Source of the DNA: Candidatus Poribacteria bacterium
GTDB lineage: Bacteria > Poribacteria > WGA-4E > WGA-3G
DNA: 64,000 nucleotides
Assembly (NCBI GenBank): GCA_965198235.1
Contig: OZ240248.1
Span: forward strand, 4,160,001-4,224,000
Direction of reading: 5' to 3'
The position numbers and the translations under genes were made by a program. Position 1 is the first letter of the stretch, and every line of letters starts with the position of its first letter. The notes under the pieces are model-generated. The model had not been told where the DNA came from and made no database searches. It saw only the letters and a list, made by a program, of their open reading frames with translations. Below are positions 24,443-50,224 of the stretch, one piece after another.

Positions 24443-24566
24443 GTAGGAGCGAGTGTTTTTGCTTGGGTCTTTGCTTAAGAAATCCGCAGGGAAATACCCT
24501 ATCAAAAACCCCAAGCAAAAACCCCAAGCAAAAACGGTATTTCTGCGGATTTCCCCATGCTCGCGA
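24443..24566. repeat. GTAG-type palindrome carrying nested CCCAAGCAAAAAC / GAAATCCGCAG inserts in both orientations
   Basis: GTAGGAGCGAG[...]ATGCTCGCGA interrupted by GTTTTTGCTTGGG...AAAAACCCCAAGCAAAAACCCCAAGCAAAAAC...GGTATTTCTGCGGATTTCCCC. Confidence 0.85.
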
Positions 24567-24618
24567 TCTTACTGACTACTGATGGCTGATTGCCAACGAC
24601 TATAACCCCAAAGAAGAC

Positions 24619-24647
24619 TTGCAAAATCCACGAATTAATGGTAATCT
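24619..24647 (+). promoter_or_regulatory. Sigma70-type promoter
   Basis: TTGCAA-17-TAATCT with TG extension upstream of the ABC permease. Confidence 0.5.
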
Positions 24648-24680
24648 AATTTAAGGTTAACATCCACTGAAAGGTTATAG

Positions 24681-25475
24681 ATGGCTCTCAATACGAATTC
24701 TTTTCCCGCCTATTTCTCACTCTTTAAAGTGACACTCCGCCAGATGTTTTGGAGTAAACGAACCGTCCTGATTCTGCTCGGATGTCTGCTATCACTCGCC
24801 ATAGCACTCGCATTCCGGTTCATAGCACGAGGCGGCGGAAGCGTCAACCGTTTCATCCCACAGATAACGTTGGCACTTTACGGGCTCTTGGTGAACCTAT
24901 CCGCAATTTTCTACGGCACCGCAATCATCTCTGATGAAATCGACGGAAAAGGCTTGACGTATCTCCAGATGCGACCGCTCCGCAAATCAACGATACTCCT
25001 TAGCAAATTCGCTGCATACCTCGTCGGGACTGTTACGCTTATCGGAACATCTCATCTGATTCTGACCGGCATTATGGTAACACATCCGAAACTACAGAAT
25101 GGCGTGTTTTTTCAGTTGGGTATGAGTCTACGCTACACTGCATCAATGACATTGGGCTTGTTAGTCTACGGGGCACTCGCTACAGTTTTGGCAGTCAAAT
25201 TCAAGAATCCAGTACTGTGGGGTCTGCTATTCGTAATGGGATGGGAAAAAATTACGTTGAGCCCAGTGATGGCGACAGGTATCAAGCGGTTATCTATATC
25301 ACACTATCTTTTTACGCTATTTCCACGCTATAAACTACCTCGAAGCGGTTTCAATGAACTTTTGGGAACATCACCACCATCAGCGTGGGTAGCACTTCTG
25401 GTAATCTTCATATTGACAGCGGTGCTGCTGTGGCTCGCCATCCGAATTTTCCGGGGACGAGAATATTTGATGTAA
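24681..25475 (+). CDS. ABC-2 type transporter permease
   Basis: About 6 TM helices; IISDEIDGKGLTYLQMRPL.K..ILLSKF. Confidence 0.85.
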   Translation: MALNTNSFPAYFSLFKVTLRQMFWSKRTVLILLGCLLSLAIALAFRFIARGGGSVNRFIPQITLALYGLLVNLSAIFYGTAIISDEIDGKGLTYLQMRPLRKSTILLSKFAAYLVGTVTLIGTSHLILTGIMVTHPKLQNGVFFQLGMSLRYTASMTLGLLVYGALATVLAVKFKNPVLWGLLFVMGWEKITLSPVMATGIKRLSISHYLFTLFPRYKLPRSGFNELLGTSPPSAWVALLVIFILTAVLLWLAIRIFRGREYLM

Positions 25476-25482
25476 GCGATCC

Positions 25483-25559
25483 TCAACCGCGCGCCTTGAG
25501 AACCTATTTTTAATCAATACAAGGGTAGGTGTGGTTTTCAACCGCGCGCCTTGAGAACC
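25483..25559. repeat. 22-bp direct repeat duplicating the ackA 3' end
   Basis: TCAACCGCGCGCCTTGAGAACC at 25483 and 25538. Confidence 0.9.
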
Positions 25560-26740
25560 CGCGCAGTCTCACGTGAGACAATCAACTCCTCATTCGTGGC
25601 AACAACCAGAATTTTGGCACGGCTGTCATTCGCCGAGAGGTCTACTTCGCCAGTAAGTTGCTCATTCTTCACAGCATCTAAGTGAATACCACACCATTCA
25701 AGCCCCTCACAGATCTTCGCTCGCGTTATTGGGCTTTTCTCACCGATACCACCAGCAAAAGCGATAACATCTACTCCCCCAAGTGCAGTGATATACGCAC
25801 CAATATATTTTTTCACACCGTAAGCGTAAGTATCCAGTGCCAATCGGGCATCATCGTTGCCTGCATCAATCGCCGCCTCTACATCACGCATATCGCCACT
25901 CGTGCCAGAGATCCCTTTCAACCCGGAATCCTCAATCAGCTGACGACGAATCTCATCAGTAGAGAACCCCTCTTTGTCGATCATATACAGCACCGCAAAC
26001 GCATCTAACTCGCCGCAACGGGTAGACTGAATCATCCCATATTGCGTAGATGTTCCCATCGATGTATCGATAGATTCCCCGTCTTTGATGGCACAGAGAG
26101 ATGAACTGCCACCGAGATGGCAAGAGATAATGCGTAACCCTTCCCCTGTCTCCTGTCCGAGCAACTGCGGCACGCGTTCAGAGATGTATCGGTGCGAAGC
26201 CCCATGGTAGCCGTAACGACGGATATCGTGCTGTTCCACCCAGAAGCGAGGCACACCGAATTCGGCGGCGTAATCCGGGATCGTCTGATGGAACCACGTC
26301 TCAAAGACTGCAACGAGTGGAGTTGTGGGAAGCAACTCCTGAAAGGCACGGATAGAGGCGATATATGCGGGGTTATGCATCGGCGCGAGCGGTGTAGATG
26401 TCTCCAACGCATCTATCACGTCTTCGGTGATTCGTGCAGAACGCCAGTACCCTCTGGCAAGAATGGTTTTGAATCCGACACCGTCCAAGTGCCCCAAGTC
26501 TTCAAGGCATCCGACTTCAGTATCAGTGATCAGATCCATCGCGTGCGCAATAGCCGCAGTATGTGTTGGTGCATCGATTTCGCCTTCGCGAGACGGTTTA
26601 CCGGGCACCGCATGTGCGAAGGCAGACGGCGAATTGCCGATACGTTCCACCCCTCCCTTGACAAGAGAGGTCGTGGTTTCCATATCAATAATTTGGTATT
26701 TGAACGAGGTACTCCCTACGTTCGCACAGAGTATACGCAT
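25538..26740 (-). CDS. ackA: Acetate/propionate kinase
   Basis: NVGSTSFKY, PLAPMHNP, RRYGYHGASH, CHLGG, GGIGE, TNEEL. Confidence 0.93.
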   Translation of the reverse strand: MRILCANVGSTSFKYQIIDMETTTSLVKGGVERIGNSPSAFAHAVPGKPSREGEIDAPTHTAAIAHAMDLITDTEVGCLEDLGHLDGVGFKTILARGYWRSARITEDVIDALETSTPLAPMHNPAYIASIRAFQELLPTTPLVAVFETWFHQTIPDYAAEFGVPRFWVEQHDIRRYGYHGASHRYISERVPQLLGQETGEGLRIISCHLGGSSSLCAIKDGESIDTSMGTSTQYGMIQSTRCGELDAFAVLYMIDKEGFSTDEIRRQLIEDSGLKGISGTSGDMRDVEAAIDAGNDDARLALDTYAYGVKKYIGAYITALGGVDVIAFAGGIGEKSPITRAKICEGLEWCGIHLDAVKNEQLTGEVDLSANDSRAKILVVATNEELIVSRETARVLKARG

Positions 26741-26778
26741 AGTGGCTTTTCGTCTCTCTTCTCAAACAAAGATACATT

Positions 26779-27038
26779 TAATGCGAGTTCAATATTAGAA
26801 TTCTCCGTAGGTTGGGTTGAGCGGTAAAAGACCAAGAACTCGCCAGTTTATACGGAGCATTCTGATTTTCGGTGAACCGTCCGTTTAGATAGAGATAGCG
26901 AAACCCAACAACCCAAACGCTACCGGTGTGAGAATACGTTGGGTTTCACTCGGGCTTTAGTAATTTCAGGTCTCTCGATGAATTTGACAGTCATCTTTTA
27001 TGTGAGTTTTCAATAAAATACCGTTCAACCCAACCTAC
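26779..27038. mobile_element. MITE/REPIN-like element family C (inverted homolog of 45865-46149)
   Basis: GTAGGTTGGGTTGA...TCAACCCAACCTAC outer arms; GAAACCCAAC...GTTGGGTTTC inner arms. Confidence 0.85.
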
Positions 27039-27336
27039 GTGCTTCATCGTCCTTGCTATTCAAAACCTTCAGAGCAGTCTCGACTTCAGCATCAATATCT
27101 TTAGCACTGAGTTCAGCAAAAGGAGAAATTCCAGCTGCAGACATCAAGTCTGAGAGATCCCATCGGGAAATGTTGAGGAGTTTCGCAGCTCTATCGGCAC
27201 TAATATCCCCATGCCGAAGAAGTTCAAGTACAAAAGCCGCTTTCGCTTTACACTCCGCATCGGTTTTGTGTTGCAAAAAACTTTCGTCAATAGGAAGTGT
27301 AAATGTGAATTGAACTTCAACTTCTGTCTTTGCCAT
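27025..27336 (-). CDS. UPF0175-like small protein (putative antitoxin)
   Basis: L.RHGDISADRAAKLLNISRWD HTH-like segment. Confidence 0.7.
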   Translation of the reverse strand: MAKTEVEVQFTFTLPIDESFLQHKTDAECKAKAAFVLELLRHGDISADRAAKLLNISRWDLSDLMSAAGISPFAELSAKDIDAEVETALKVLNSKDDEARRLG

Positions 27337-27424
27337 AGAGATTACCTCACTTACCTGTTTTGCTTTTACAAACAATTGCATTTGCCTCTAACAAGAAAAA
27401 ATTTACTTGAACTATCGGCTTAAA

Positions 27425-27832
27425 TCAAGACAGATGTGGTTCAACTACTTGCTCTACGCTTTTCTCCACAGCCGGGTTTACGTCTGTTCCGCCTTCGCGC
27501 TTAGGTTCAAAACAGTGGTCCGTGTCTGCTATTGGTTCAATCAAGAGCCGACATCCTAGCGCGCTGAGGATGGTGCCGAACGTGTCAATCCGCGGTGCTT
27601 CGTCGCTGGACAGAATGCCGGAGAGGGATTCTGGGGCGATTCCGGTTTGCTTGGCGAGTGCGGAAATCCCGCCCTGTGATTCTACGACGGTCCGCAATGC
27701 CAGCAGCAGCAAAGGTGTGTCACCGTCAACTTGGTATTCTTCAAGTGAGAATTTGAGATACCGAATTGCCGCTTCTTGATTGGCAGCAAATCGTTCAGTT
27801 AGATATGCGCGCCATGTTCTCAGCTTTCTCAT
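27425..27832 (-). CDS. Addiction module antidote protein (HigA/HI1420-like HTH)
   Basis: LLLALRTVVESQGGISALAKQTG...PRIDTFGTILSALG; ATGA overlap with toxin remnant. Confidence 0.88.
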   Translation of the reverse strand: MRKLRTWRAYLTERFAANQEAAIRYLKFSLEEYQVDGDTPLLLLALRTVVESQGGISALAKQTGIAPESLSGILSSDEAPRIDTFGTILSALGCRLLIEPIADTDHCFEPKREGGTDVNPAVEKSVEQVVEPHLS

Positions 27833-28002
27833 TGTTGTGTCTCCTTGTATTCTAACCAATAGTTTTTTGCGCGTTCAATATCCCGTGTCTGCGATGATTT
27901 ATCACCACCACAAAGCAAAAGTACAATTGTGTTATCCACTTCTCCAAAATAAACACGATAGCCTGCTCCGAAATGGATACGGAGTTCAAAAACCCCACCA
28001 CT
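27829..28002 (-). pseudogene. 5'-truncated addiction module killer (RelE/HigB, HI1419-like) toxin
   Basis: Manual translation GGVFELRIHFGAGYRVYFGEVDNTIVLLLCGGDKSSQTRDIERAKNYW; no N-terminal half or start. Confidence 0.85.
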
Positions 28003-28430
28003 GATGCTGCTAATCCTTCAAATAATGCATCAAAGCCAAATGAACCGCCTAAAAAGATAACTTGGATATTGTCGTTGTCTCCAAACATTAACCTATCTTT
28101 ATTCGGGAGGTCGTTTTCAAGAAGATCAATGTTTGTATACTCTTTTAATTTTTTCTTTCCTTGGACAACAGATATATTGACCTCTCCAATCTGTTTAAGG
28201 TCAATAGAAAACGTTTTGGGTCCATAGCGATGTTTTATTATTTGCTCACGGTAATAATTCTGTGTGTCAATCATTACGGTTGCATAGATGTTCAGTTCGT
28301 TATCTGTAGGTTTATCAATATCAGTTGCCTAAAAATAAACAACTTTTACAACAGGATTTACATTCTCAACCCCTGAATGTGCTCTTGACATAGATAAGGC
28401 TGCAAGTAGTAGAATTGTGATAAACTTCAT
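28003..28430 (-). pseudogene. Truncated secreted-protein gene with internal TAG
   Basis: MKFITILLLAALSMSRAHSG...VVKVVYF*ATD...QNYYREQIIKHRYGPKTF; AT-rich; runs into toxin remnant. Confidence 0.6.
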
Positions 28431-28643
28431 CTATGGTTCCTTCTCTTGTTTGTAAGTGTTTTGGAGGCTGTGTCGTCGCTGACCTCTCCGCTAGTGATAG
28501 TAGAAATGGCTACGTAACCGCTATTGAATTTTAACTTCTATCTTTGCCATACAGATTACCCCACTTATCATCTCCTTTTTCAAACAGCGGAATGTGTCCG
28601 GAACAGACACATCTTTCCAACCGAACACATTACGCATATCATA

Positions 28644-31600
28644 TCACATCTTTGGCAGTGTGGGCAAGGTCAAGCGCGGACGTTCACCGAAATCGGGGAC
28701 TTCGGGCGGATTCTCTTCCATCTGTCGGAGGAGTTCTTCAATCGCGCGGTCAAGTTGCGGGTCATCTTCTGTCGCATAGTCTTGCGGACGATAGTCCACC
28801 TCAATATCCGGATCCGTCCCGTAGTTCTCAACGCTCCAACCAACATCAACGAACCAGAAAGAATACTCCGGCTGCGTTGTGCCACCTCTATCCACAAACG
28901 CCTGATGCGGTGAGATACCGATAACGCCACCCCATGTCCGTTTCCCGATGAGCAATCCCAACTCCATCAGCTTGAAGCAGTGCGAGAAAATATCGCCATC
29001 GGAACCAGCGTTTTCGTTCGTGACAGCCACCATCGGACCCAAAACGGAAGCGTCTGGATACGGATGCGGCGTGCCCCAACGCGGAACGTCATACCCAATG
29101 CGCCGGCGAGATAACTTCTCTAAAAGCAGTTGCGAAACATGTCCACCGCCATTGTAGCGCACATCGACCAGCAGACCGGGATAACTCACCTCGGCGAGAA
29201 AACCGCGGTGAAATTCCGCATACCCGCGCCGCCCCATGTCAGGAATATGGACATACCCGACTTTACCATCCGTCTTTTCATGGACATACCGCCGATTTTT
29301 GGAGACCCATTCTCGATACCAAAGTTCGCTTTCGCTTCCGAGCACCTTGAGTGTAACGACGCGTTCCTCACCATCGTCCGCACTTTGGAACGTCGCTTGA
29401 ACCTCCTGATTTGCGAGACTCACGAGCAGTTCACCCGGCGAAACCGTTTCACTGACACGTTGTCCAGCAATAGCAAGCAAAATATCGCCTTCGCGGATAT
29501 TAATCCCCGGGGCATTGAGCGGCGAATCCTTCGTCGCCTCCCAGCCATCGCCGCGCGGGATGTGCGTGATACGATAACCATTGATCTCGGCATCGTAAGC
29601 AAAATCCGCACCGAGAAACCCCTGGGCGTAATTCGGCGAACTCCGATAATCCCCACCCATTTCATACGCATGCGAGGTACCGAGTTCTCCCTGCATCTCC
29701 CACATCAAGTCCGAAAATTCACCGCGCGTCGCAATCCGTTCAAGGAGCGGCAGATAGCGTTGATACACATGCTCCCAATCCACGCCAGACATATCCTCTG
29801 TCCAGAAGTATTCCCGCTGGAGCCGCCATGCCTCCCGATACATCTGATGCCACTCAGCCGTCGGAACGACGGAGGCTTTGATACGATTAAGGTCGATCCA
29901 ACCGGTCTGTCGGCTCGGACCACCTCTGCTCTCAGACTTGGAGTCCCCCTCAGCCTTTTTGCCCGCCCTGATAACACGCAATCGATTTCCAGTGGAATAG
30001 ACGAGCGTTTTCGCATCGCGCGAAAGTTGAAAGTCATTAATGCCGGAGACAAGCGTCTCCTTTTTCTGCTCTTTGAAGTCGTAGGCGTGAAGTACACCTC
30101 TCGGTCTGCTACTACTTTCATCATCATCCGGGGGTGTATCTTGTACCGGAAACGACGTAAAAATCGCTTTGCCCTCAATACCAGCGATCTGTCCATAACG
30201 TCCGTGCGGATACGGGAACGCGACGACGCGCTGCGTAATGCCTTCCAGATCTATCGTGATCAGTTTCTCCACCTTCTGCTCAGATTTCTCGTCAGATGCC
30301 TTATCCTCGTCATCCTGTTTCTTCTCGTCCTCATCCTTGTCTCCGTCTCCCTTCTCCTCCTCAAACGGACGGGGTTCAGGGATGAACGGATCGCCCAACG
30401 CCTTCTGCAAAGTTACCAACAACGGACGCATCGCCGTAGGAAACCCAAGATCAAAGTGGAGCGCATCATAGACAGGATTGAACTCGCGATAGGAGAGAAA
30501 ATAGAGATATTTCCCCTCGGGATCCCACGATGGACCAAAATCGTTGAATTCTGGATCCGTGACGAACCACGTCTCACCCGTCTCAATCTTGCAGAGTTTG
30601 ATTGAACGAGTGGTTTCCGTAGATGCAAAACTATAGGCACACCATTTACCATCAGGCGACCACGCTACATCTCGGATATTCTGATAATGCCCCTTCTCAA
30701 GCACCCGCATCTCTTGTGTCTCTAAATCGATGTGCAAAAGTTCAAGACGATTATTGATAAGAAGCAACCGATTCTTCTCGTCGCCTTCGGTTTGCGGAGC
30801 AACCGCAAGTTGCCGAACGTGTCCGATGTCAAGAGCATCAAGGCGGACAACGTCAGCACTCCCATCGCGTGTATGGATCTCAAGTGCCTCTTCACCCTCA
30901 GCATCGGAGAGAGTGACGAGACGTTTACCATCGTTGAGCCATTCAGTAAAGCGGTAACGTGTCCCACTACGCTCGCCGTGCTGGAGAACCGCGCCCTCCC
31001 AATTCGCCATTGTAAAGGATTTTCCTCGGACCGTCACTGCCAATGCGTGACCGTCTGGGGTCGGGGCATAATCTTGGAGGTAGCGCGACGAACTGACAAA
31101 CTTTCGTTGCCGCTGGGCACGCGGGCTGCGGAATTCGACTTCAACACGGGTTTCAGTGTCGCTCTCAATTTCATAAACAAACAGGTCGGCACCTGCATGA
31201 TAGACAATACGTGTGCCATCCGTCTGAGCAGAACGACAGTAGTAGGTATCCTGATGCGTATGGCGTTGAATGTCCTCACCCGTCGGGAGGCAGGAGTAGA
31301 TATTGCCAACACCTTCATGGTCGGAAATAAAATAGATACGTTCGCCGACCCACATCGGTGTCGTGAAATTACTGTCCACGGGTGCGAGAGGCTGAAATTG
31401 CCCATCCCCCTCCGGGTCCACCCAGATTTGCCCTGCAGTGCCGCCGCGGTAGCGTTTCCAGCGCGCCGGTTCACGGGTCAATCTACCGAGTACAACGCCG
31501 CCAGTACCGCCGAAATCAATATGGTTCGCGGGACCGTAGGAAAGACGTTGCGGTTCGCCTCCGTCTGAGCAGATTTTCCATATCCATGGATCAAATGCCA

Positions 31601-31922
31601 GACCGGCACCACTCGAATAGAGAATCGTCTTGCTATCGGCATCCCAGTCGACGATAGCAGCGTTGCTCCCCTGATAGGTGAGCCGCTTCGCTTCACCGCC
31701 AAGCGCAGGCATAACATAAACCTCTGACGGACCCTCTTCACGCCCTGTGAACGCAAGTAGTTCACCATCCGGTGATAAGCGCGGAGAACTTGCTGCGCCG
31801 AGATTCGACGTGAGTCGCCTCGCAACCCCGCCTTCGACTGAAACCGTCCACAAATCATCTTCACACACAAAAACAATGGTATCCTGACAAATTGTCGGAA
31901 ATCTATAATATCCTGACATCAA
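28644..31922 (-). CDS. Tricorn protease (S41 family)
   Basis: Propeller repeats, WKRYRGG, GELGTSHAY, PDZ, DVRYNGGG, AGSDGD, GKRTWGG. Confidence 0.96.
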   Translation of the reverse strand: MMSGYYRFPTICQDTIVFVCEDDLWTVSVEGGVARRLTSNLGAASSPRLSPDGELLAFTGREEGPSEVYVMPALGGEAKRLTYQGSNAAIVDWDADSKTILYSSGAGLAFDPWIWKICSDGGEPQRLSYGPANHIDFGGTGGVVLGRLTREPARWKRYRGGTAGQIWVDPEGDGQFQPLAPVDSNFTTPMWVGERIYFISDHEGVGNIYSCLPTGEDIQRHTHQDTYYCRSAQTDGTRIVYHAGADLFVYEIESDTETRVEVEFRSPRAQRQRKFVSSSRYLQDYAPTPDGHALAVTVRGKSFTMANWEGAVLQHGERSGTRYRFTEWLNDGKRLVTLSDAEGEEALEIHTRDGSADVVRLDALDIGHVRQLAVAPQTEGDEKNRLLLINNRLELLHIDLETQEMRVLEKGHYQNIRDVAWSPDGKWCAYSFASTETTRSIKLCKIETGETWFVTDPEFNDFGPSWDPEGKYLYFLSYREFNPVYDALHFDLGFPTAMRPLLVTLQKALGDPFIPEPRPFEEEKGDGDKDEDEKKQDDEDKASDEKSEQKVEKLITIDLEGITQRVVAFPYPHGRYGQIAGIEGKAIFTSFPVQDTPPDDDESSSRPRGVLHAYDFKEQKKETLVSGINDFQLSRDAKTLVYSTGNRLRVIRAGKKAEGDSKSESRGGPSRQTGWIDLNRIKASVVPTAEWHQMYREAWRLQREYFWTEDMSGVDWEHVYQRYLPLLERIATRGEFSDLMWEMQGELGTSHAYEMGGDYRSSPNYAQGFLGADFAYDAEINGYRITHIPRGDGWEATKDSPLNAPGINIREGDILLAIAGQRVSETVSPGELLVSLANQEVQATFQSADDGEERVVTLKVLGSESELWYREWVSKNRRYVHEKTDGKVGYVHIPDMGRRGYAEFHRGFLAEVSYPGLLVDVRYNGGGHVSQLLLEKLSRRRIGYDVPRWGTPHPYPDASVLGPMVAVTNENAGSDGDIFSHCFKLMELGLLIGKRTWGGVIGISPHQAFVDRGGTTQPEYSFWFVDVGWSVENYGTDPDIEVDYRPQDYATEDDPQLDRAIEELLRQMEENPPEVPDFGERPRLTLPTLPKM

Positions 31923-32000
31923 CTCCTCCGTGATAACTTAATGAAATACAAACACAAATAAACGTAGATTGCGTTGAACTGGAAGTGAAACCCAATCCAG

Positions 32001-32807
32001 TTACCCACTTCTTTTAAGCCTGCCGACGCGTTTCGCATACTTTTCACCCAAATGGAAAATCCAAAATCCAAGTGGAATAAGTAGGACACCAATGATGAGT
32101 AGTAAAGACAGATTGCCCACTTGGCTCTCAACGGACGCGTTATCAAGCATCGCCGCACGAATCGATCTGAGTGTATACGTGGCAGGCGAAATTTTGGAAA
32201 TCGGTTGAAGCCATACCGGTAACACTTCGATTTCATAATAGATACCGGAGACCAAGAGTAGCATTGATTGAATGATACCCGTTGCGGCTTGTCCCTTCTC
32301 CGGCGAGAGCAACGGAAAGATCGCCGCCATCAGACCGATCCCGATGAAAGAGAGACTGGAGATAAGAACAGTGATCCCCATTGTTAGCCAATTCGCGTTG
32401 CCTAAGTCAATGTGTTCCCCAAAAAAGAAAGGTATTATTGCCAAAACCAAACCCGTCCGCAGCAACCCGTACAGAATCGCAAATAGACACGAACCAACAA
32501 GGTGTGTGATGCGGTAAATCGGTGCCATAAAGGTATATTCAATCGTCCCTTCCCATCTCTCCCATGTAATGGCATCGCTCACCTCACGCATCATAATGGA
32601 GAGAAACCCCCAGATTAATGCGCCAATGACGAGGTAAAGCACATCTTCACTGCTGCCGCGTCCTACCATAATCAAGCCAATCGTTAGTGCATTGACGATG
32701 GAATAACTGAAAAAGAGGATTTCCCAACTCAGATACCGCTTCAGCAGATTGAAGTTCCGTTCAATGAACGCGTAAGAGACAATCGTTTCCCGGACAAGAT
32801 TCAGCAT
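32001..32807 (-). CDS. ABC-2 type transporter permease
   Basis: WERWEGTIEY..MAP, SGIYY...LP.WLQ. Confidence 0.9.
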   Translation of the reverse strand: MLNLVRETIVSYAFIERNFNLLKRYLSWEILFFSYSIVNALTIGLIMVGRGSSEDVLYLVIGALIWGFLSIMMREVSDAITWERWEGTIEYTFMAPIYRITHLVGSCLFAILYGLLRTGLVLAIIPFFFGEHIDLGNANWLTMGITVLISSLSFIGIGLMAAIFPLLSPEKGQAATGIIQSMLLLVSGIYYEIEVLPVWLQPISKISPATYTLRSIRAAMLDNASVESQVGNLSLLLIIGVLLIPLGFWIFHLGEKYAKRVGRLKRSG

Positions 32808-32811
32808 GGCT

Positions 32812-42125: not shown

Positions 42126-42133
42126 ATGCGTTT

Positions 42134-42162
42134 AATATAATAGTTTTTCTATGTTATGTCAA
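42134..42162 (-). promoter_or_regulatory. Sigma70-type promoter with near-leaderless start
   Basis: TTGACA-17-TATATT on minus strand, 8 nt before ATG, no SD. Confidence 0.6.
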
Positions 42163-42220
42163 GTGAAACATTTCAGTAGTGATAGGCGTTTAAGCAACGA
42201 TTCTCTCCACGTGCCTCCAG

Positions 42221-42260
42221 TAGAGTGGTGATTTTACCTATAAAATCACCACTCTCTTTT
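42221..42260. terminator. Hairpin with T-tract
   Basis: AGAGTGGTGATTTTA-ccta-TAAAATCACCACTCT then CTTTTT. Confidence 0.65.
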
Positions 42261-42379
42261 TGAAGAAACTTATCGCGAAATTCAACAAAGAAGACGATGC
42301 CATTGTTCATCAGATAACTTGGCAATCCCGCTGTGCTCTGGAATGGACCAACAGCATCTTTTTTCCACCTAAAGCATAG
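42257..42379 (+). pseudogene. Internally deleted remnant paralogous to 45027-45794
   Basis: FLKKLIAKFNKEDDAIVHQITWQSRCA/LEWTNSIFFPPKA* versus FLKEFINKPNEEDIAIVHQMTLRYRCA...QEWVNGIFFLPKP*. Confidence 0.8.
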
Positions 42380-42413
42380 GAGAGAAATCAGGACCTTACC
42401 CTTTGCATCGCGC

Positions 42414-42827
42414 ATGATGCTCACCTGCCCGGTAATATTTGCCATCCTATCGGCAGATATATCAATCGCCACACCTACCACAGAAACAAATGATTCCTTC
42501 ACTCGCGAAAAAAGCAACCCTCTCATTGGACTCCCAACTCTCGTTGTAATGGGCGTTACCTCCTTTGGACGTTGGCTAACCCCCTTAGATGAATGGCAAG
42601 CAGAGATCCACAAACTTAATGGGGATGAACTGTTTATTCAACGTTGGATGTTGGTTAACAATGATACTGTCTCTCGTGAAAAAGGAAAAAGAGCAATTAT
42701 GAGAATTCAAAAACGAAGGAATGCCATCGAGAAAAGACGTAACCGCTTCCTATGGTGGTATTATCCGAGTATCATTGTCGTTGGAGCGGGTGCTGGGATG
42801 TTAACTCTCTGGCTGCAAAAGGATTAA
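42414..42827 (+). CDS. Hypothetical membrane protein (start uncertain)
   Basis: ORF with hydrophobic segments; paralog of the disrupted copy at 45805. Confidence 0.6.
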   Translation: MMLTCPVIFAILSADISIATPTTETNDSFTREKSNPLIGLPTLVVMGVTSFGRWLTPLDEWQAEIHKLNGDELFIQRWMLVNNDTVSREKGKRAIMRIQKRRNAIEKRRNRFLWWYYPSIIVVGAGAGMLTLWLQKD

Positions 42828-42929
42828 CCTTGTTTGAAATGCGACAGAAAAGCGCGGGATGTTTCAGATCTAGCTTGAAGAGGTAAACTACTGATGCAAT
42901 ATAAAATCTCTGTCTTTGGAGGAATCAAA

Positions 42930-44936
42930 GTGAAACGTATTCTCGTTTTTGTCAGCATCGCCATCACGATGCTATATCAACTCGGTTGTTCTCCTGATGA
43001 AGAGCAAACACAACTTGAGAATCCCACAGTTAGCGATTCAACAGCAGTTCTTAACGCCCCACCCTTTGTCGGAGACGTTGTACTGGAAAACATGTACGAG
43101 GATGAAGTTCGGAAACTGACGAGCAAAACACCACTGGAGATCATTACCGTGCTTGAAGGCACCAGCAAAGTCATTCTTCAGGCTCGATTCCGATCCGTCC
43201 GAGATGGACCCTTTGGATCCCCCGTCTATGAGTGCGAACTGGTTGATGAATCAGCAGAGGCATTAGGGGGTATTGCACGAGGAATGTCTGGCAGTCCTGT
43301 CGGTCCACCGGGTCGTGTTATGGGGGCTCTCGCCTTTACGTATGCGTTTAGTAAACCGCCGTATCGGTTCTTGGTCACACCTATTGATTATATGGAGGCG
43401 GCAATAGACCACCCAACGTTTGGTGAGTTTCTGGAGGAAGAAGCGGCACCTGCGGCACCGGCACTGGCGATTAATTCCTTGTACACACCCGTTAAAGCAC
43501 CCGTGATGATTACTGGGACTCAGCCCCACAGAATTCAAGAACTTTCTTCATATTTCTCTGACTCAAGATTCAATTTTGTTGAATTGCTTGGTAATATTGG
43601 AGGTGCTCCAGCAGCACCGCCTGCGGGTGCTACAACAAAACTCTCTGCAGGGGATATGATTGGTGCTGCTGTCGCTACAGGGGATGTTACGAGCCTCATT
43701 GGCTTTGGGACAGTGACACAGGTGTATGACGATACATTTGTAGCGTTCGGTCATCCATTCTTTGCCGATGGAAAGTCCGAATTACCGGTATACAGAGCCG
43801 TAACGCATGGAATCGTGCCGAGCCTGGTGGTATCAACCAAATCTGTCTCCGCGTATGGAAATCCGATCGGGACAATAACTAAAGACTTACATCCCGCAGT
43901 TGTAGGGAAACTCGGTCCGGGACCTGCAATGATTCCGGTGAAACTCTCTTACCGTCCCGTTAATAACACAGTAATAGAGAAACACCACGTTGTGGCTTAT
44001 GGACAAGAGTGGGCGATTTCGTTTGTTACGGCAGTGACGATGGATGCAATTCGGATGGAAAGGAATGCTGCAACAGTTGAAGGGACTGTGACACTTCACT
44101 TCCAAGAAACTGAAACTGTCTATACAGAAACGTTCCGGACTGCCTCTTCAAATCCATTTTTCGATGTGTTCATAGGAACGGTTTCAATTATTGATTCGTT
44201 CACTAATACACTTACAAACAGCGCTGGCAAAGCGACCTTGAAAGAGGTGTCGATTGCTATTGTGGACAAACCTCAAATTGCCAAAGCCGAGATTGACGAA
44301 ATTATTGCGCCAATTGAAGTGATGCCTGGCGAAAGCCTTACGGTTTCGGTTGTGCTACTTCCACACTGGAGTACTGCCGGCGCCGAGCGTACGATTCAAA
44401 GAGAAGTTATACTGGACATCCCTGACGACTTCCCTACGGGTAAAGCGATCCTCACGGTTTCCGCCGATGCATCGGCTGGCGACACAGAATTTGAACGGCT
44501 TTTCGGTGACATTTTGGATGAAATCCTGGATATGGAAGAAGATGATGATGAAAAACCGTTGCCCAGAAATCTGGACGAACTCATCCGTCAGAAGGAAGAA
44601 GATCAGATGGATGCAGGGTTAATCACAATAACCCTCACACCATCGGGCTTTGGTGGATTCCCATTACCCGGAGACTTCCCGCTGCCAGAGGGCTTCCCAC
44701 TCCCAGAAAATGACGAAGAGGGTGAAGAAATTCCAGAAGGCTTTCCACTCCCAGAAGGTCTCCTATTGCAGGAAGGCTTCCCACTTCCAAACGATTCTGA
44801 GGAACAGAGCATAGAAACTGAACTCATTATTGAAGGCTTTATCGTAACAGGGTCTAAAGAGAAACAGATTACGATTAAAGTGGGAAATATAGGGCAAGAT
44901 GTGTTGCCAATAGAAGGCTTAGAAGGCGCAGAATAA
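42930..44936 (+). CDS. SpoIVB-like peptidase S55 domain lipoprotein
   Basis: Lipobox-like QLGC; GIARGMSGSPV; GTVT...AFGHPF; acidic FPLPEG repeats. Confidence 0.85.
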   Translation: MKRILVFVSIAITMLYQLGCSPDEEQTQLENPTVSDSTAVLNAPPFVGDVVLENMYEDEVRKLTSKTPLEIITVLEGTSKVILQARFRSVRDGPFGSPVYECELVDESAEALGGIARGMSGSPVGPPGRVMGALAFTYAFSKPPYRFLVTPIDYMEAAIDHPTFGEFLEEEAAPAAPALAINSLYTPVKAPVMITGTQPHRIQELSSYFSDSRFNFVELLGNIGGAPAAPPAGATTKLSAGDMIGAAVATGDVTSLIGFGTVTQVYDDTFVAFGHPFFADGKSELPVYRAVTHGIVPSLVVSTKSVSAYGNPIGTITKDLHPAVVGKLGPGPAMIPVKLSYRPVNNTVIEKHHVVAYGQEWAISFVTAVTMDAIRMERNAATVEGTVTLHFQETETVYTETFRTASSNPFFDVFIGTVSIIDSFTNTLTNSAGKATLKEVSIAIVDKPQIAKAEIDEIIAPIEVMPGESLTVSVVLLPHWSTAGAERTIQREVILDIPDDFPTGKAILTVSADASAGDTEFERLFGDILDEILDMEEDDDEKPLPRNLDELIRQKEEDQMDAGLITITLTPSGFGGFPLPGDFPLPEGFPLPENDEEGEEIPEGFPLPEGLLLQEGFPLPNDSEEQSIETELIIEGFIVTGSKEKQITIKVGNIGQDVLPIEGLEGAE

Positions 44937-45026
44937 TAATTTCGGAACCCTGTTGTATGGACAGGTATTCGTGCCTGTCCATACAGCATCAAATACCTAT
45001 CACTGATAACACGAAAAGGACAAACA

Positions 45027-45794
45027 ATGCAGCATTCTCTATGTTTCACAGTTTTTATACTTTTTGCGATCGCTTTTCAATTGCTGGGTTGCTCAGAAGA
45101 CACCGACAACGATACAGCACCAGTCGAAACCTTTATTGCCGAACCTATACCATCCAAACCCACACCAGAAGACACCTTCGCGAAACTAAAGATGTTGTTT
45201 CCAAACCCCATTTTAGATGGAGACTTCTCAACGCTCGGTGAGGTGACAGACTCTAAAACATATTTGGACTTTCTCGCCCAAGAATATCGGACGGAAAAAC
45301 CGTTTAAAACGCTGGCAGAATATCTCAGTGTAGCTCCACCACCTGATCCAGAAAGATACAAACCCTTTTTGAAGGAATTCATTAACAAGCCCAATGAAGA
45401 AGATATAGCCATCGTTCATCAGATGACGTTGCGGTACCGTTGTGCGAATGCGAGAATGTATCAGATGATGCACGATGGAAATGTTGTCAAGGCGATACTT
45501 GCCGCGCTCGGAAAAAAGTTTGGGATTCGTGACAAAGAACCAATAAAGGCTTGGTTAGAATTACATTTTCCAAAACAAGGCTTTTTTATCACTTTCGACA
45601 ATTTCGTCACGGAAACCGAAAGAGAAGACGTCCACTTAATACAAGAACAGTTTAAGGTACACGGCAAAGATAACGGACTTTTATGGCTTGCCATCCGCAA
45701 CCCTGCATTAACCGCAGAGATTCTCAATAATTTCACCAATACGGTTGTGTTTCAGGAATGGGTTAACGGCATCTTTTTTCTCCCAAAACCATAG
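45027..45794 (+). CDS. Hypothetical lipoprotein
   Basis: LLGC lipobox; paralogous to 49232-50041. Confidence 0.8.
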   Translation: MQHSLCFTVFILFAIAFQLLGCSEDTDNDTAPVETFIAEPIPSKPTPEDTFAKLKMLFPNPILDGDFSTLGEVTDSKTYLDFLAQEYRTEKPFKTLAEYLSVAPPPDPERYKPFLKEFINKPNEEDIAIVHQMTLRYRCANARMYQMMHDGNVVKAILAALGKKFGIRDKEPIKAWLELHFPKQGFFITFDNFVTETEREDVHLIQEQFKVHGKDNGLLWLAIRNPALTAEILNNFTNTVVFQEWVNGIFFLPKP

Positions 45795-45804
45795 GAGAAA
45801 GATT

Positions 45805-46294
45805 ATGACCTTCACCTGCGCATCGCGTCACGTGCTAATCGGGACGTTAATATTTGCTATCCTAACGTGAGTTCGACATTAGGCGCGTAGGTTGGGTTGA
45901 ACGGGAACTTCCTAAAAACCGTACACAGAAGATGCCCTTCAAGTTCACCGGGAACCTGAAATCCCCAAAATCCGAGTGAAACCCAACACAGTATCATACC
46001 GCCAGTTTGGATTGTTGGGTTTCGCTATATCTCTCTATGTGAACGGGTCATCGAAAAGTGGAATTCTCCGTATAAATAAGATGGGTCTGGAGTTTCACCG
46101 CTCAACCCAACCTACATTTACACTTGCATTTTTATTATCGAACTGACGTTATCCTACTAACAAATATTTCAGTCGCCACACCAACCAAAACAGCACATAA
46201 TTCGCACACCCACAAAGAAAACAGACCATTTATCGGGATCCCAACCCTCGTCGTAATGAGCGTTACCTCCTTTGGATACTGACTAACCCCTTTA
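45805..46294 (+). pseudogene. Paralog of 42414-42827 disrupted by a MITE and a nonsense codon
   Basis: MTFTCASRHVLIGTLIFAIL[MITE]LTNISVATPT...FIGIPTLVVMSVTSFGY*LTP. Confidence 0.85.
45865..46149. mobile_element. 285-bp MITE family C with 7-bp target-site duplication
   Basis: TATCCTA|ACGTGAGTTCGA...TCGAACTGACGT|TATCCTA; internal GTAGGTTGGGTTGA/TCAACCCAACCTAC arms. Confidence 0.92.
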
Positions 46295-46449
46295 CAATCA
46301 CAGCCAAGCCATTGTTGGAATTGAAGGATTCCTCATAGACTTGGCTGTTCTGCGTTCTGCTGATAAACTCAATCTCTGTGTCAACTGGAACATTTAATTT
46401 AGCGTTAAAGCCTACAATTCAGATTCCAAAGGGAGATTAAAACCTCTTT

Positions 46450-49146
46450 ATGAAATTTTGTTTATATCCAGTTCTGTTTGTGGTGCTCATAGGGCTGTTC
46501 TCTGTTTCCGCTGAAACGGACAACAAAGAAGACAAGATCCCAAAAACCAAAAGAAGCCTCTGGCAGCGAATCTTTCCACGCACAGGTGATATGGAAGGCA
46601 CCGCCTACCAGCACGACACCGACACACCATTAGTTGAAGCAGAAGTGCATATCGTTGAAACCGACCAACATCAAAAAACGGGTAAAGATGGAACGTTTCG
46701 GTTTACTGAAATTCCTGTCGGAACATACACGCTCTCCATATCCCATTCCTCCTATAGCAGCCCCACAGAGATCACTATCGAAATTCGCGCAGGCGAGACA
46801 CTCAGCGGAAAATTTTATCTCGGCGCGGAGGTCCCATTTGTCAAAACTACCGACAACGGGGACATAAATGGGCAGGTCTATAGCCAAATGACAGGGAAAC
46901 CCCTCGCTGAGGCAGAGGTGCGATTCGTTGAAATCGACGTGTCAAGAAAAACGGATGCATCTGGAAATTTTCAGTTTACAGGTATCGCGCCCGGCACTTA
47001 TACACTGTTAATTACGCATACAACATACAAAACACCGACGGCTACAAAAATAGAAGTAACGGCAGGTGATACTACGCGGGTGAAAATCTATCTCGGTACA
47101 GCGGTCCAACTCGAAACAGTCGTCGTAGAAGGGCAACGTCTATCCCCGACGATTAGCCGCAAAGAGATTCAAGGTAGCGAGTTGATACGGATTCCTGGTA
47201 CTGGACGTGACGCACTCAAGGGGCTAACGACTTTGCCGAGCATTGGTATTCCCAACGATCTCTTTGGCATCCTCTATATCCGCGGGAGTGCACCGGGGGA
47301 GACGCTCCTCTATCTCGACAGAACTCCGCTCGGCTATCCGTTCCACTTTGGCGGCCTTATTTCAACGATTAACTCAGATAGTATTGAGGACATCCGTATC
47401 TATGCTGGTGGCTACGGTGCTGAATTTGGATTGGATTCACAATCGGTGATTGACATCCGTTCGCGTGAACGCTTGAAAAAGAACTGGGCAGGCGCGATTG
47501 ATCTGAATATTTTATCGCCCTCCGGTTTCGTTGAAGCCAAAATCGGGGACAAGGGTTACGTGTCCGCCGCAGGGCGATTTACCACCCTTAATCTCATTTT
47601 AGGACACTTCTTTGATTCGACGTTTCCGAACTGGTCGAACTATCAACTCAAATTTGCATATCAACTTACGCCACAGCATCACCTAACGCTCAACGGCTTA
47701 GGAGCGACAGATAGCTTTGACTTCTCCGATGCTGGATCAGAAGAGATCGAGGACGCAGTTAATTTTTCTGCCTACTTCAAAAATGGGTTTGACGCGGAAG
47801 GCATTCACCTCCGCTCCCATTTCACTGACAAACTCACATCCTATCTCTCCCTGACGCGTTCCCACAATTTTCTCAATATCAACTTCGGCAACACCTCAAA
47901 CCAAGACGCTCAAACTGAAAATGAAGGATTCATCTACGACCTAAAGATCAACACCCCCGTGTATACCCTTCGCCAGGACGTGTCCTACAAGTTAACATCA
48001 AGACTTCAATTGGAACCTGGATTCCTTCTCGCGTTTAGTCCATCTAAAAGCCATACACATACCTCTTCTCCAGAAAACATAGATTTTGATGAGGAGCCGT
48101 CATGGACACGGAAGCTTGACGAATTTAATTACCCATTTCGGCGCGCCGAGGGGTACCTCCAAGCCCGCTATGATCCGCTCTCATTTTTATCTGTCGCCCT
48201 CGGTGTGCGATTCGACTATCTCAATCTGACAGAGGAACTTTCTATTCAGCCTCGCGGAAGTCTGAGTTTCACACTGCCGACGACTTCTACCCTTCGGCTC
48301 GCCTACGGCAGATATGAACAAAGCCCCTTAGCGTACCAGGTACTAAAGGCGGACGGAAATAGAAATCTAAAACCGAGTCTGACGGAGCATTACATCATGG
48401 AATTAGAACATGAATTGTCTGCACAAACCGAGCTCAAATTCGCTGTTTATTACAAAGACATGCAGAAATTAGTCACGAGATCTGTCAATCTTGACGCGTT
48501 TTTTGATGACTCGGACGATGCGGTTACAACAGGTTATTTCAATCAAGGTGTAGGATTTGTGACGGGTGCGGAGATATTCCTTCGGCACCGCGTTAGCGAA
48601 AAATTTTTTGGATGGGTATCTTATGCCTATACCCACGCCGAGCGGCGCGAGACACCGGACGCTGCCTACACGCCGTTCCTTTTTGATAACACACACATTG
48701 TTAGTATTGTTGCCAACTATAGCCCAACAACAAAAACTGAGATCGGAGCGAAATGGCAATACGCAAGCGGCACTTCAGCTGTCCCTCTAAGCACACTTCT
48801 GATGATTCAAGACCCTGTGACCCTTGGCATGCATCCAGTCCTCTCTGATGTTGCGGGCTCGATTGTCCCAACGGAATTTCCGGCGTATCACCGCTTGGAT
48901 CTCCGCTTTACACGCAAAAGGGAGTGGTGGGGTCTTCCTGTGACGATGTTTACCGAAATCTGGAACATCTACAATAGCAAAAACAAGATAAGGTTCAATT
49001 TCGTCAACAAATTCGTGGAGGAAATCAACGCAGCAGAGATTGAGAATGCGGAAGATTTCCCCTTGGACTTGGATTCGCCCTTTGAATATACGAGTCCTGT
49101 GCGACTCCCTTTTAGTATCAATGTTGGAATCATATATGAATTTTAA
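46450..49146 (+). CDS. TonB-dependent receptor with two N-terminal carboxypeptidase-regulatory-like domains
   Basis: Signal peptide, two repeated G.F.FT.I..GTYTL domains, YIRGS plug, YHRLDLR, terminal YEF. Confidence 0.92.
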   Translation: MKFCLYPVLFVVLIGLFSVSAETDNKEDKIPKTKRSLWQRIFPRTGDMEGTAYQHDTDTPLVEAEVHIVETDQHQKTGKDGTFRFTEIPVGTYTLSISHSSYSSPTEITIEIRAGETLSGKFYLGAEVPFVKTTDNGDINGQVYSQMTGKPLAEAEVRFVEIDVSRKTDASGNFQFTGIAPGTYTLLITHTTYKTPTATKIEVTAGDTTRVKIYLGTAVQLETVVVEGQRLSPTISRKEIQGSELIRIPGTGRDALKGLTTLPSIGIPNDLFGILYIRGSAPGETLLYLDRTPLGYPFHFGGLISTINSDSIEDIRIYAGGYGAEFGLDSQSVIDIRSRERLKKNWAGAIDLNILSPSGFVEAKIGDKGYVSAAGRFTTLNLILGHFFDSTFPNWSNYQLKFAYQLTPQHHLTLNGLGATDSFDFSDAGSEEIEDAVNFSAYFKNGFDAEGIHLRSHFTDKLTSYLSLTRSHNFLNINFGNTSNQDAQTENEGFIYDLKINTPVYTLRQDVSYKLTSRLQLEPGFLLAFSPSKSHTHTSSPENIDFDEEPSWTRKLDEFNYPFRRAEGYLQARYDPLSFLSVALGVRFDYLNLTEELSIQPRGSLSFTLPTTSTLRLAYGRYEQSPLAYQVLKADGNRNLKPSLTEHYIMELEHELSAQTELKFAVYYKDMQKLVTRSVNLDAFFDDSDDAVTTGYFNQGVGFVTGAEIFLRHRVSEKFFGWVSYAYTHAERRETPDAAYTPFLFDNTHIVSIVANYSPTTKTEIGAKWQYASGTSAVPLSTLLMIQDPVTLGMHPVLSDVAGSIVPTEFPAYHRLDLRFTRKREWWGLPVTMFTEIWNIYNSKNKIRFNFVNKFVEEINAAEIENAEDFPLDLDSPFEYTSPVRLPFSINVGIIYEF

Positions 49147-49231
49147 CGCAAGTGCGCCGCTTACTTAAGAGTTGCAATCCACTTCAAAAGATGCTATGAT
49201 GCGGTTATAATATTCAACCGGAGGACAAAAA

Positions 49232-50041
49232 ATGAAAAAACCTGTCTTTCTAATTCTTATCGGTATAGGCGTTGCCCTTCTTGTTGTTGGGGTCGTCTTT
49301 GTCGTCCCATGGTTCGGAAAGATATTAGACGAAATGGAGCAGATAACCGAACAGCATAGGCAACACAGGCGCGCATTAAAAATGTCTGCCCGCGAACCGT
49401 TGACTGAAGAACAGGAAAACCTTTTGTCCCAACTCCTTGAAATCACAGATGAAACACAAGCATCACAAAACCCAAACGATTTAGAAGAGGTCTTGTCAAG
49501 CGAACCCTATCTGACATATTTAAGAGGGCAGGAAGGAGAAGACTCCGAAGATTTTTCGGCGTACGTCAACGCAATGCCGACAGAAAATATGAAAGCTATC
49601 GCCCTCTCCAGAATCAAAGCCACACTCGGAACGGATAAAGGAGATACAGAATTAGACGTATGGACGAACTACTATTTCATCGTCCGAGAGTGGGGAATCA
49701 CGGTTGAAGACCCGCGTGACAACATAAAAGAACTTAATGAACTCCAACAGACCCACCTGATAGCACCGCTAATGGAGATCGATTCAGAGGTATCCGACTT
49801 GCATACCAAAATCGTCCAAATCGGTATGTCCTCCATATTCATGACAGAGGACACCAACGTGTTCAAGGAGTCGTGGCGTGAATGCTTGGAGATACACGGG
49901 GAACAAGAAGGTCTTTTGCGGTGTGCGATTGCCGCTCCCGATGAATTCGCACTCATGCGATCGTTTTTTGCGGATATGGCAGCCTTCCAAGAATGGATAC
50001 TCACACGTCCAGAACCTGAAGAACAAGAATCAGAACAATAG
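49232..50041 (+). CDS. Hypothetical membrane-anchored protein
   Basis: N-terminal TM; SEPYLTYL / HGEQEGLL / FQEWI match 45027 protein. Confidence 0.75.
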   Translation: MKKPVFLILIGIGVALLVVGVVFVVPWFGKILDEMEQITEQHRQHRRALKMSAREPLTEEQENLLSQLLEITDETQASQNPNDLEEVLSSEPYLTYLRGQEGEDSEDFSAYVNAMPTENMKAIALSRIKATLGTDKGDTELDVWTNYYFIVREWGITVEDPRDNIKELNELQQTHLIAPLMEIDSEVSDLHTKIVQIGMSSIFMTEDTNVFKESWRECLEIHGEQEGLLRCAIAAPDEFALMRSFFADMAAFQEWILTRPEPEEQESEQ

Positions 50042-50144
50042 CATCTACGACAACCTGACTATGAAACAACAACCCTTCCCATCGCTGATGGACTTCCTAA
50101 CCCCCACTATCCAAAACCGTCACGTCATAACCCCTACCATCGCT

Positions 50145-50224
50145 GGCGAGGTTTCTTAAGGGAAATCCGCAGAAATCCGCAGAAATACCCAAGCAAAAAC
50201 ACCCCAAACAAAAACACCTCGCCC
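50145..50224. repeat. GGCGAGGT...ACCTCGCC palindrome with reiterated GAAATCCGCA / CCCAAGCAAAAAC insert
   Basis: GGCGAGGTTTCTTAA-GGGAAATCCGCAGAAATCCGCAGAAATACCCAAGCAAAAACACCCCAAACAAAAAC-ACCTCGCC. Confidence 0.85.

Follow-up and report, generated by a model that had tools for sequence, protein, structure and literature searches.

Within the 64,000-nucleotide stretch of a Candidatus Poribacteria genome analyzed here (the window; contig OZ240248.1, positions 4,160,001 to 4,224,000), a short reiterated sequence, which we call the unit, interrupts several unrelated palindromic elements, and the locus raises the question of what this sequence is and how it came to stand inside them. A first-pass annotation of the window had proposed an undescribed system that copies a 3'-anchored sequence into palindromes at a nick. 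The analysis reported below indicates that the unit is a real, abundant and genus-specific micro-repeat with a clear insertion signature. As to its nature, the reading that we favor, and to which we give about an even chance, is that of a family of tiny modular repeats, dispersed, non-coding and specific to this lineage, analogous to the small dispersed repeats (SDRs) of cyanobacteria and written beside an (A)CYY motif by a DNA-level process independent of reverse transcriptase (RT).

Abundance and Modular Grammar of the Unit

When up to one mismatch was allowed, the 13-base core CCCAAGCAAAAAC matched seven times in the 64-kb window, whereas 100 dinucleotide-preserving shuffles gave 0.16 matches on average and in no case (0/100) as many as seven. 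The whole source genome (G000; 5.17 Mb in 2 contigs, 48% G+C, 96% complete) harbors 256 exact occurrences of the core, and the 19-mer GAAACACCCAAGCAAAAAC was found in 94 perfect, 85 one-mismatch and 64 two-mismatch copies, the reversed control giving 0, 0 and 0. The seed motifs were grouped into 447 clusters; a core-type module was present in 272 of them, and both ends could be recognized in 218 arrays.

The unit consists of (T), three purines, GAAAYR and then CCCNNNCAAAAAC. Its core form measures 19 nt, or 22-23 nt with the linker; exactly 19 nt were observed in 128 of the 218 arrays, and the longest array reaches 166 nt. One small grammar fits 211/218 arrays. Zero or more 10-nt A1 modules (GAAATCCGCA; GAAAT[C/A]C[G/A]CA, at times after GG or GAG) are followed by one GAAAYR and then by a B zone of one or more 13/15-nt B modules (CCCNNNCAAAAAC), abutting or linked by AC, and a return path, CCCNNNCAA via TACGCA, leads into the A zone again. 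The triplet of the B module is AAG in 264 cases, TAT in 107 and CAG in 13. AAG and TAT modules are mixed or interleaved in 56 arrays, and such a mixture cannot be made by duplication in situ because the triplets differ at three positions. Every combination of the GAAAYR variants with AAG, TAT and CAG is present, in unrelated hosts.

The suffix lengths counted from the constant 3' end are discrete, i.e. 13 nt (123 copies), 20 nt (89 copies) and 22 nt (130 copies), with only 12 copies at 14-19 nt, and each length has its own upstream context: a B module at 13 nt, an A1 module at 20 nt, and the full unit plus linker at 22 nt. The constant 3' end described in the first-pass annotation was retained, and the variable 5' truncation that it had reported gave way to peaks at 13, 20 and 22 nt, i.e. 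to ends that are neither random nor graded. The unit contains no self-complementarity or hairpin (the top strand of the 19-mer is T-free), and its ends, GAAAYR... and ...CAAAAAC, are not inverted repeats, i.e. there are no terminal inverted repeats (TIRs). A correspondence between the 5' pentamer and the module that comes first was considered and rejected, since TAGGG and TTGGG preceded 8 and 6 TAT-first arrays and 5 and 5 AAG-first arrays, respectively, with no covariation.

A long form, represented by 10 copies, keeps the ends GAAAYACC and GCAAAAAC around ~55 nt of other, hairpin-containing sequence, and this internal sequence is at times stuttered itself. A diverged copy of the internal hairpin sequence was observed on contig C1 of G000 at ~539,380-539,480 (minus strand), downstream of a strong sigma-70-like promoter (TTGACA, 17 nt, TATAAT) and ahead of the start codon in a membrane-protein gene; it is possibly an old insertion that now lies in the 5' untranslated region.

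Insertion Junctions and Empty Sites

The junctions were analyzed with one array per right-flank cluster, which gave 77 clusters, 48 of them singletons. The +1 base after ...AAAAAC is A in 54/77 and C in 21/77 clusters, and the three bases past the leading A are C in 71/77, C or T in 74/77 and C or T in 72/77, so that the unit stands immediately 5' of an (A)CYY motif. On the opposite side, the three positions ahead of the first GAAA (-3 to -1) hold purines in 68, 71 and 75 of the 77 clusters; in 42 of them the run of purines has a length of exactly 3, and the base before the run is T in 52 and C in 25. The 5' junction falls between C and T or between T and T in 45/77 clusters, and the 3' junction between C and A or between C and C. 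Other Poribacteria records (111 loci with 128 arrays) gave the same profile. Insertions nested at GGTG flanks account for 8/218 arrays.

Empty paralogous copies of the host sequence were found for 29 of the 272 arrays, in ~10 unrelated host families, and in every filled/empty comparison (A)CYY pre-exists in the empty copy, 1-8 nt are replaced, and there is no target-site duplication (TSD). This replacement without duplication upholds the earlier argument that an element with neither TIRs nor TSDs is not moved by DDE transposition. Written as left/replaced/right, the empty sites include ccatc/a/actcg (the palindromic element H1), gtagatc/cg/ccctcc, cctgggc/tg/ccctcc, cgcgaag/gttgaggt/cttcaaag, gagcggttac/aaa/ccgctc and gtgaacga/a/cccacc. 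Moreover, one orthologous intergenic site is filled in the genomes G036, G018 and G014 and empty in G004, G013 and G040 (...gaatc-g-ccttcc...). An old orthologous copy of the unit drifts at the pace of its flanks across four species.

Hosts and Routes of Spread

An exact stem of at least 6 bp across the array was present in 58/218 arrays (27%), compared with 12% of 2000 control positions. The palindrome is a true setting of the window sites, as had been noted, but not the target genome-wide, where the constant feature of the sites is the flanking (A)CYY motif. In the hairpin family H3, the empty loops are mostly 3 or 7-8 nt long (e.g. TTTCTAA), and in filled copies the unit closes the loop on its 3' side. 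A search for hairpins of the form GGCGAGG-loop-CCTCGCC gave 268 regular-expression matches, both strands counted, with loops such as TTTCAAA or TTTCCTAA, and many of these hairpins sit within longer repeated elements. A further host is the repetitive extragenic palindrome (REP) family that flanks the RAYT genes described below, of which 64 copies have a plain 4-nt spacer and some carry the unit exactly between spacer and stem; in these filled REPs, four of which contain a minimal 25-nt filling, the unit stands at the 5' foot of the stem.

Altogether, 29 repeated host families hold 170 of the 218 arrays. When the window was compared with the syntenic 70 kb of five genus-mates, 0/4 window loci were shared, and the differences in length corresponded to whole host elements, which, together with their unit, are present or absent between the syntenic regions of the six genomes. 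Much of the copy number therefore stems from mobile hosts. On the other hand, the 77 flank contexts and the empty sites indicate that the unit also enters new sites on its own. Hence, the unit spreads by two routes, its own insertion and riding on mobile palindromic hosts (REP-, REPIN- or miniature inverted-repeat transposable element (MITE)-like). Of the 268 arrays on C1, 201 are intergenic, although a crude open reading frame (ORF) call covers 87% of the chromosome, and three arrays lie near 2 of the 48 tRNA/tmRNA genes.

Unit Copies in the Window

The seven core matches (at most one mismatch) lie at 1581, 24510, 24523, 50188 and 50203 on the plus strand and at 10459 and 24455 on the minus strand. 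The first-pass annotation proved largely right in its description, and all the sites named in it were confirmed, including the AC(C)TCG motif that follows the constant 3' end of the reiterated sequence at four palindrome insertions (ACTCG at 1594 and, on the minus strand, at 10458; ACTCGC at 24454, minus strand; ACCTCG at 50216). A minimal unit (GAA + GAAACA + CCCAAGCAAAAAC) at 1572..1593 (plus strand) lies within the left arm of an H1 element, whose arm pieces are 1562-1571 and 1594-1598 and whose partner arm is 1622-1637; another minimal unit at 10459..10480 (minus strand) lies in an inverted H1 copy. The unit does interrupt several unrelated palindromic families, with the correction that at the H1 sites (1572, 10460) it splits the arm of the palindrome and not its loop. 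The two inverted ~200-nt H1 copies (1562-1637 and 10415-10490), each with its minimal unit, bracket ~9 kb of genes (ORFs 1859 to 10216), and both are absent from the compared relatives.

The opposite-orientation nesting noticed at 24443 was also verified, a plus-strand array (24477-24535) being inserted in a minus-strand one (24455-24476 plus 24536-24556) within the hairpin H2. The 3' part of the outer array, two B-type modules at 24455..24476 (minus strand), adjoins the arm GCGAG at 24449-24453. The inner array at 24477..24535 (plus strand) is composed of AAG, one 10-nt A1 module, GG, GAAATA and three 13-nt B modules (TAT, AAG, AAG), and its insertion point is CTT^G^GG of the outer unit. The 5' part of the outer array, the reverse complement of GGGGAAATCCGCAGAAATACC, occupies 24536..24556 (minus strand) and is followed by a loop remnant and the arm CTCGC at 24560-24564. 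The same arrangement, with its empty counterpart (tttgctt/g/ggtgtttc), recurs elsewhere in the genome and also in another genome (L013). Jointly, the nested arrays at 24455-24556 fold with -23.8 kcal/mol (z = -3.84). In the orthologous region of window positions 24276-24680 in L123 (G014), the intergenic sequence has grown to ~1 kb; six tandem ~50-nt repeats derived from another host palindrome (...cgggaatcggagttccctcctacagg...) were observed there, and the same place in G004 (L126) is occupied by a different tandem repeat, (g)ggcaggcacacgctacaag.

The array at 50156..50215 (plus strand) resides in an H3 hairpin with the arms GGCGAGG at 50145-50151 and CCTCGCC at 50217-50223, and consists of a TTAAGG linker, two A1 modules, GAAATA, a B module (AAG), AC and a B module (AAA variant). 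The reiterations comprise GAAATCCGCA twice and two CCCAARCAAAAAC within 50163-50215, and three CCCNNNCAAAAAC within 24497-24535. No Rfam family was found in the window at gathering score, and, as the first-pass annotation had stated, the window encodes no enzyme for the unit.

Distribution of the Unit

A scan of 185,579 species genomes assigned 78 of the 80 listed matches to Candidatus Poribacteria (metagenome-assembled genomes, MAGs, of sponge symbionts). The degenerate 19-mer was detected in 54 of the 56 genomes of the genus, at 3-241 copies each, and gave 0 matches in the genus-mates G048 (5.1 Mb, single contig) and G128. In the sister genus, 5/38 genomes contain 1-5 copies, and among the 56 other genomes of the phylum that were searched, five have one or two matches and 51 none. 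Four genus-mates (G016, G104, G133 and G043) carry fewer than 20 units each. A match in a Treponema record (L057) was taken as chance, as it is without the purine linker and without the (A)CYY flank. Five unit-like hits were also obtained in viral contigs; two of them have the junctions of the family, three look like chance, and none adjoins a candidate enzyme. The IMG/VR contigs L187 and L188 each contain one unit with a purine linker and an ACCCC or ACTTCC flank, and may represent Poribacteria phage or prophage DNA on which the same process has acted.

The 19-mer is identical between species whose flanking genes share just 70-91% identity. The triplet of the core varies by species, with AAG and TAT dominant in G000 and CAG dominant among the matches listed for G155, G003 and G005. 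The ratio of A1 modules to units is likewise dependent on the species (134:241 in G000, 79:70 in G132, 5:219 in G014 and 5:147 in G006), which speaks for a lineage-specific factor rather than for generic replication slippage. The share of arrays with 10-nt A1 modules spreads more than 20-fold between unit-rich species. De novo k-mer analysis of 400 kb of the unit-free G048 revealed no substitute small repeat and only repeats coding for leucine-rich repeats. The k-mer spectrum of this sample is dominated by a cluster of long genes at C1:1,189,000-1,209,000 (L176-L177) with 66-nt leucine-rich-repeat-like coding repeats.

Search for the Enzyme

No match to the RT family RVT_1 was obtained in G000. 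Across 61 genomes of the genus, RVT_1 was found in 36 and not in 25; the negative genomes include the unit-rich, single-contig G006, G014, G018 and G036, and the unit-free G128 has two RT matches. PF09250 (Prim-Pol) and PF01548 (IS110) also gave 0 matches in G000, and Y1 HUH was the only candidate enzyme family that turned up in this genome. It is represented by three RAYT-like Y1 genes (C1:3853757-3854101, 606918-607262 and 1898775-1899119) and by three IS200/IS605-type copies, in which a Y1 tnpA precedes a tnpB-like ORF (C1:119838-120191, 4381488-4381841 and 4792784-4793137). Each RAYT-like gene is flanked by one REP family (head TCTAYANANAT, 4-nt spacer, CCCC/CTCC stem and 3-nt loop; 230 heads genome-wide), and genes and flanking REPs look like REPtrons. 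Two of the three IS200/IS605-type copies are nearly identical across their upstream regions. Y1 genes are present in 60/61 genomes of the genus and missing from the unit-free G128. A search with the 5' end of the unit in the absence of its 3' part retrieved 279 sites and no repeated long element that could be a master element.

Proposed Mechanism and Rival Explanations

We infer the break, the enzyme, the direction of synthesis and the donor as follows. A single-strand break beside (A)CYY would start the writing of a discrete module without participation of an RT. In one form of the process, an HUH-type protein (Y1, RAYT/IS200-like) would cleave the DNA and transfer short segments between recurrent junctions; in the other, the freed 3' end would be extended on another copy and realign at the GAAA and CCC direct repeats. 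Both forms could act together, and either would yield stuttered modules, the length and copy number of which would afterwards be altered by replication slippage and by transposition of the host elements. Synthesis or strand transfer after HUH/RAYT cleavage, one of the routes suggested in the first-pass annotation, is kept here as possible but unproven.

Several observations weigh against this proposal. No enzyme is tied to the unit, and the link to Y1 is weak: 42 of 268 arrays (16%) lie within 400 nt of a RAYT-type REP head, as against 7.5% of random intergenic points, and the unit-free G048 retains five Y1 matches, RAYT-like ones included. The unit lacks a hairpin of its own, and the replacement of 1-8 target bases together with a variable purine linker departs from HUH transposition, which is normally seamless; these features speak against HUH as the only route. 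Neither a master copy nor a template locus was found. The strong difference between species in the A1-to-unit ratio is left unaccounted for by the proposed process. There is no clear orientation bias relative to genes (63 co-directional versus 84 opposite arrays, on the crude ORF call) and no pattern of unit orientation along the chromosome, the cumulative GC skew of which has no clear origin or terminus. Finally, many copies may never have inserted by themselves.

A rival explanation is that there is no dedicated mobility at all, a few ancient insertions having been multiplied by host transposition and the arrays having grown by ordinary slippage. The 170/218 arrays within 29 repeated host families, the syntenic differences that are mostly whole host elements, the old orthologous copy that drifts like its flanks in four species, and the direct repeats flanking the modules, which favor slippage, all agree with it. 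We consider it unlikely, because the arrays fall into 77 flank clusters with 48 singletons, empty copies in ~10 unrelated host families obey one junction rule, AAG and TAT are interleaved in 56 arrays, all combinations of GAAAYR with AAG, TAT and CAG occur in unrelated hosts, the target motif and the purine linker recur over hosts and genomes, and the dominant variant depends on the species. If templates were switched by microhomology priming in the course of replication or repair, with other genomic copies serving as donors and no specific enzyme being needed, the family would be a self-perpetuating 'microhomology sink'. The target (A)CYY does resemble the (A)CCC that opens the next module, the replaced target bases and the variable purine linker recall junctions made by a polymerase or by end joining, variants are shuffled at positions 3 nt apart, and the long form has ~55 nt of other sequence between the same ends. 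However, donor flanks are not obviously carried over at the 5' end, which is discrete, the nested insertions at GGTG flanks (8/218) break the microhomology rule, and the restriction to one genus together with the absence from two genus-mates argues for a specific factor, so that this explanation, too, appears unlikely.

That the unit is a selected functional motif (a protein-binding site, an uptake signal or an RNA element) and not mobile could be suggested by the identity of the 19-mer across species with flanking genes 70-91% identical and by the 201/268 intergenic arrays in spite of 87% ORF coverage. Such an origin is quite improbable given that the unit arises by insertion or deletion rather than by substitution, shows no bias in orientation to genes (63 versus 84), turns over at nearly every locus between species, and is missing from two genus-mates. 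The mechanism originally put forward, in which a short RNA template is copied at a nick by target-primed reverse transcription or in the manner of telomerase, has become strongly disfavored and, in our judgment, very improbable. It would fit the constant 3' end abutting a short C/T-rich motif able to pair with a G-rich primer, the irregular repeats that resemble realignment at CCC and GAAA, and the additional purines at the 5' junction; but RVT_1 is at 0 in G000 and was not found in 25/61 genomes of the genus, unit-rich ones among them, the unit-free G128 has two, the 5' ends are modular and discrete instead of graded, and neither a master or template locus nor, in the window, an Rfam match was found. 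A weaker argument against it is that the depth of the unit relative to its flanks is alike in RNA-library and DNA contigs; the sequencing runs were compared as contigs, in which coverage of the array by an RNA library does not attest expression. A library, adapter or assembly artefact, lastly, is refuted. The unit is present in 54/56 genomes of the genus, in short- and long-read assemblies from many projects among which the junction rule is consistent, and at the 24443 array unitigs of the DNA run X2 extend across the two junctions and show 0 differences; the short-read contigs that break inside this array do so as expected of a repeat. The genome-wide survey and the independent assemblies called for in the first-pass annotation supported the unit, with 256 cores, 77 flank clusters and discrete lengths in the former and matching unitigs at the 24443 junctions in the latter.

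More speculatively, the process that we propose might be an undescribed, RT-independent 'DNA-writing' activity, in which a lineage-specific factor would nick single-stranded DNA beside (A)CYY and write a ~20-nt module with a telomerase-like stutter at two realignment zones. We put this forward as a tentative possibility, well short of an even chance. If true, the mechanism that underlies the cyanobacterial SDRs, unexplained since 2008, would have a second and independent case. The question is tractable because the dozens of closed genomes include two element-free genus-mates.

Comparison with Known Systems

Among transposable elements, the IS200/IS605 family, with three copies in the genome, and its miniature derivatives (PATEs) are similar to the unit in having no TIR, no TSD, a one-sided target and a Y1 chemistry on single-stranded DNA. 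IS200/IS605 elements depend on subterminal hairpins, and their seamless insertion takes place on the 3' side of a fixed tetra- or pentanucleotide. The unit was not classified as an IS200/IS605 miniature, since it has no hairpin, replaces 1-8 nt, brings a variable purine linker and uses a degenerate one-sided target. A MITE of a DDE transposon was rejected on account of the ends, which are not inverted repeats, and of the lack of target duplication, and a non-long-terminal-repeat (target-primed) or telomerase-like element on account of the lack of RT in unit-rich genomes and of a 5' truncation that is not graded. The unit does form tandem arrays, yet its 77 flank contexts and the 56 arrays mixing AAG and TAT do not agree with a minisatellite or variable-number tandem repeat. 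The BOX elements of pneumococcus are composed of 45-59-nt modules that form one composite element, in variable number and fixed order, and minisatellites are single-locus. Both have in common with the unit modules repeated variably in a fixed order; the unit differs in its 19-23 nt and its at least 77 contexts.

The REP/BIME system of E. coli combines short extra-palindromic linker motifs and palindromes in variable mosaics. According to published work, E. coli TnpA-REP (RAYT) cleaves single-stranded DNA around REPs and in linkers at a minimal site between C and T, with low specificity (Ton-Hoang et al. 2012, PMC3333891), and exchanges strands between such sites; in a published model, synthesis proceeds from the released 3'-OH, and a unit is gained through a second cleavage (PMC3333891; Corneloup et al. 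2021, PMC8266576). A chemistry of this kind could shuffle and reiterate short modules. In G000, the likeness extends to the three RAYT-like genes with their own REPs, in some of which the unit occupies a fixed position. In contrast to REP/BIME, the unit is found in many palindromes and at unique sites unrelated to the RAYT-flanking REP, its junctions are not C-T on both sides, and the unit-free genus-mate G048 keeps RAYT-like genes. The unit itself was not taken for a REP or REPIN, as it has no self-complementary hairpin and the REP on either side of the RAYT genes is another one.

The cyanobacterial SDRs, which can be nested, appear to be the closest described thing to the Poribacteria unit, and with such an analogue at hand the system can no longer be called undescribed in kind. 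SDR1-8 of Nostocaceae cyanobacteria were reportedly introduced by Elhai et al. in 2008 (Genome Res 18:1484). The two have in common a size of ~20 nt, many dispersed copies, variable tandem reiteration, presumed mobility, a non-coding nature and a precise placement inside a palindromic repeat. The unit falls within the SDR class as a high-copy, non-coding sequence in the range of ~20-27 nt, and its empty paralogues, its orthologous empty/filled site and its fixed position in REPs agree with the mobility of that class. The differences are the bearer, Nostocaceae as opposed to a sponge symbiont of another phylum, and the target, which is HIP1 in cyanobacteria and (A)CYY here; HIP1 is not enriched in the source genome (139 copies). 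The explicit two-zone module grammar and the same-ended long form were observed in the Poribacteria unit, and its likeness to the SDRs is one of description only.

In the literature, SDRs are treated as dispersed, reiterated and presumably mobile repeats (PMC4390886, PMC2884548, PMC13756078 and PMC5861425); SDR5, a 21-nt repeat of unknown function (PMC13756078), sits at an exact position in the palindrome HIP1, after its third base and before its fourth (PMC4390886), and SDRs are reported as not found outside Nostocaceae (PMC5861425). The mechanism and function of SDRs were still called unknown in 2026 (PMC13756078). One full-text search for palindromic repeats of Poribacteria gave, among the 12 of 31 hits inspected, CRISPR and general genomics papers only, with no description of the unit family.

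For sponge-symbiont MAGs the consequence is practical, the arrays breaking short-read assemblies and inflating the apparent divergence of intergenic regions. To our knowledge, mobile-behaving elements as small as ~20 nt have been described in Nostocaceae alone. A second case in an unrelated phylum suggests a general phenomenon rather than a cyanobacterial oddity, and it comes with constraints sharper than before, namely a one-sided target, discrete ends, a module grammar and independence of RT. It also offers a natural comparative design, since the more than 50 genomes of the genus carry from 0 to ~240 copies and differ greatly in stutter, and the responsible gene can be searched for by comparison.

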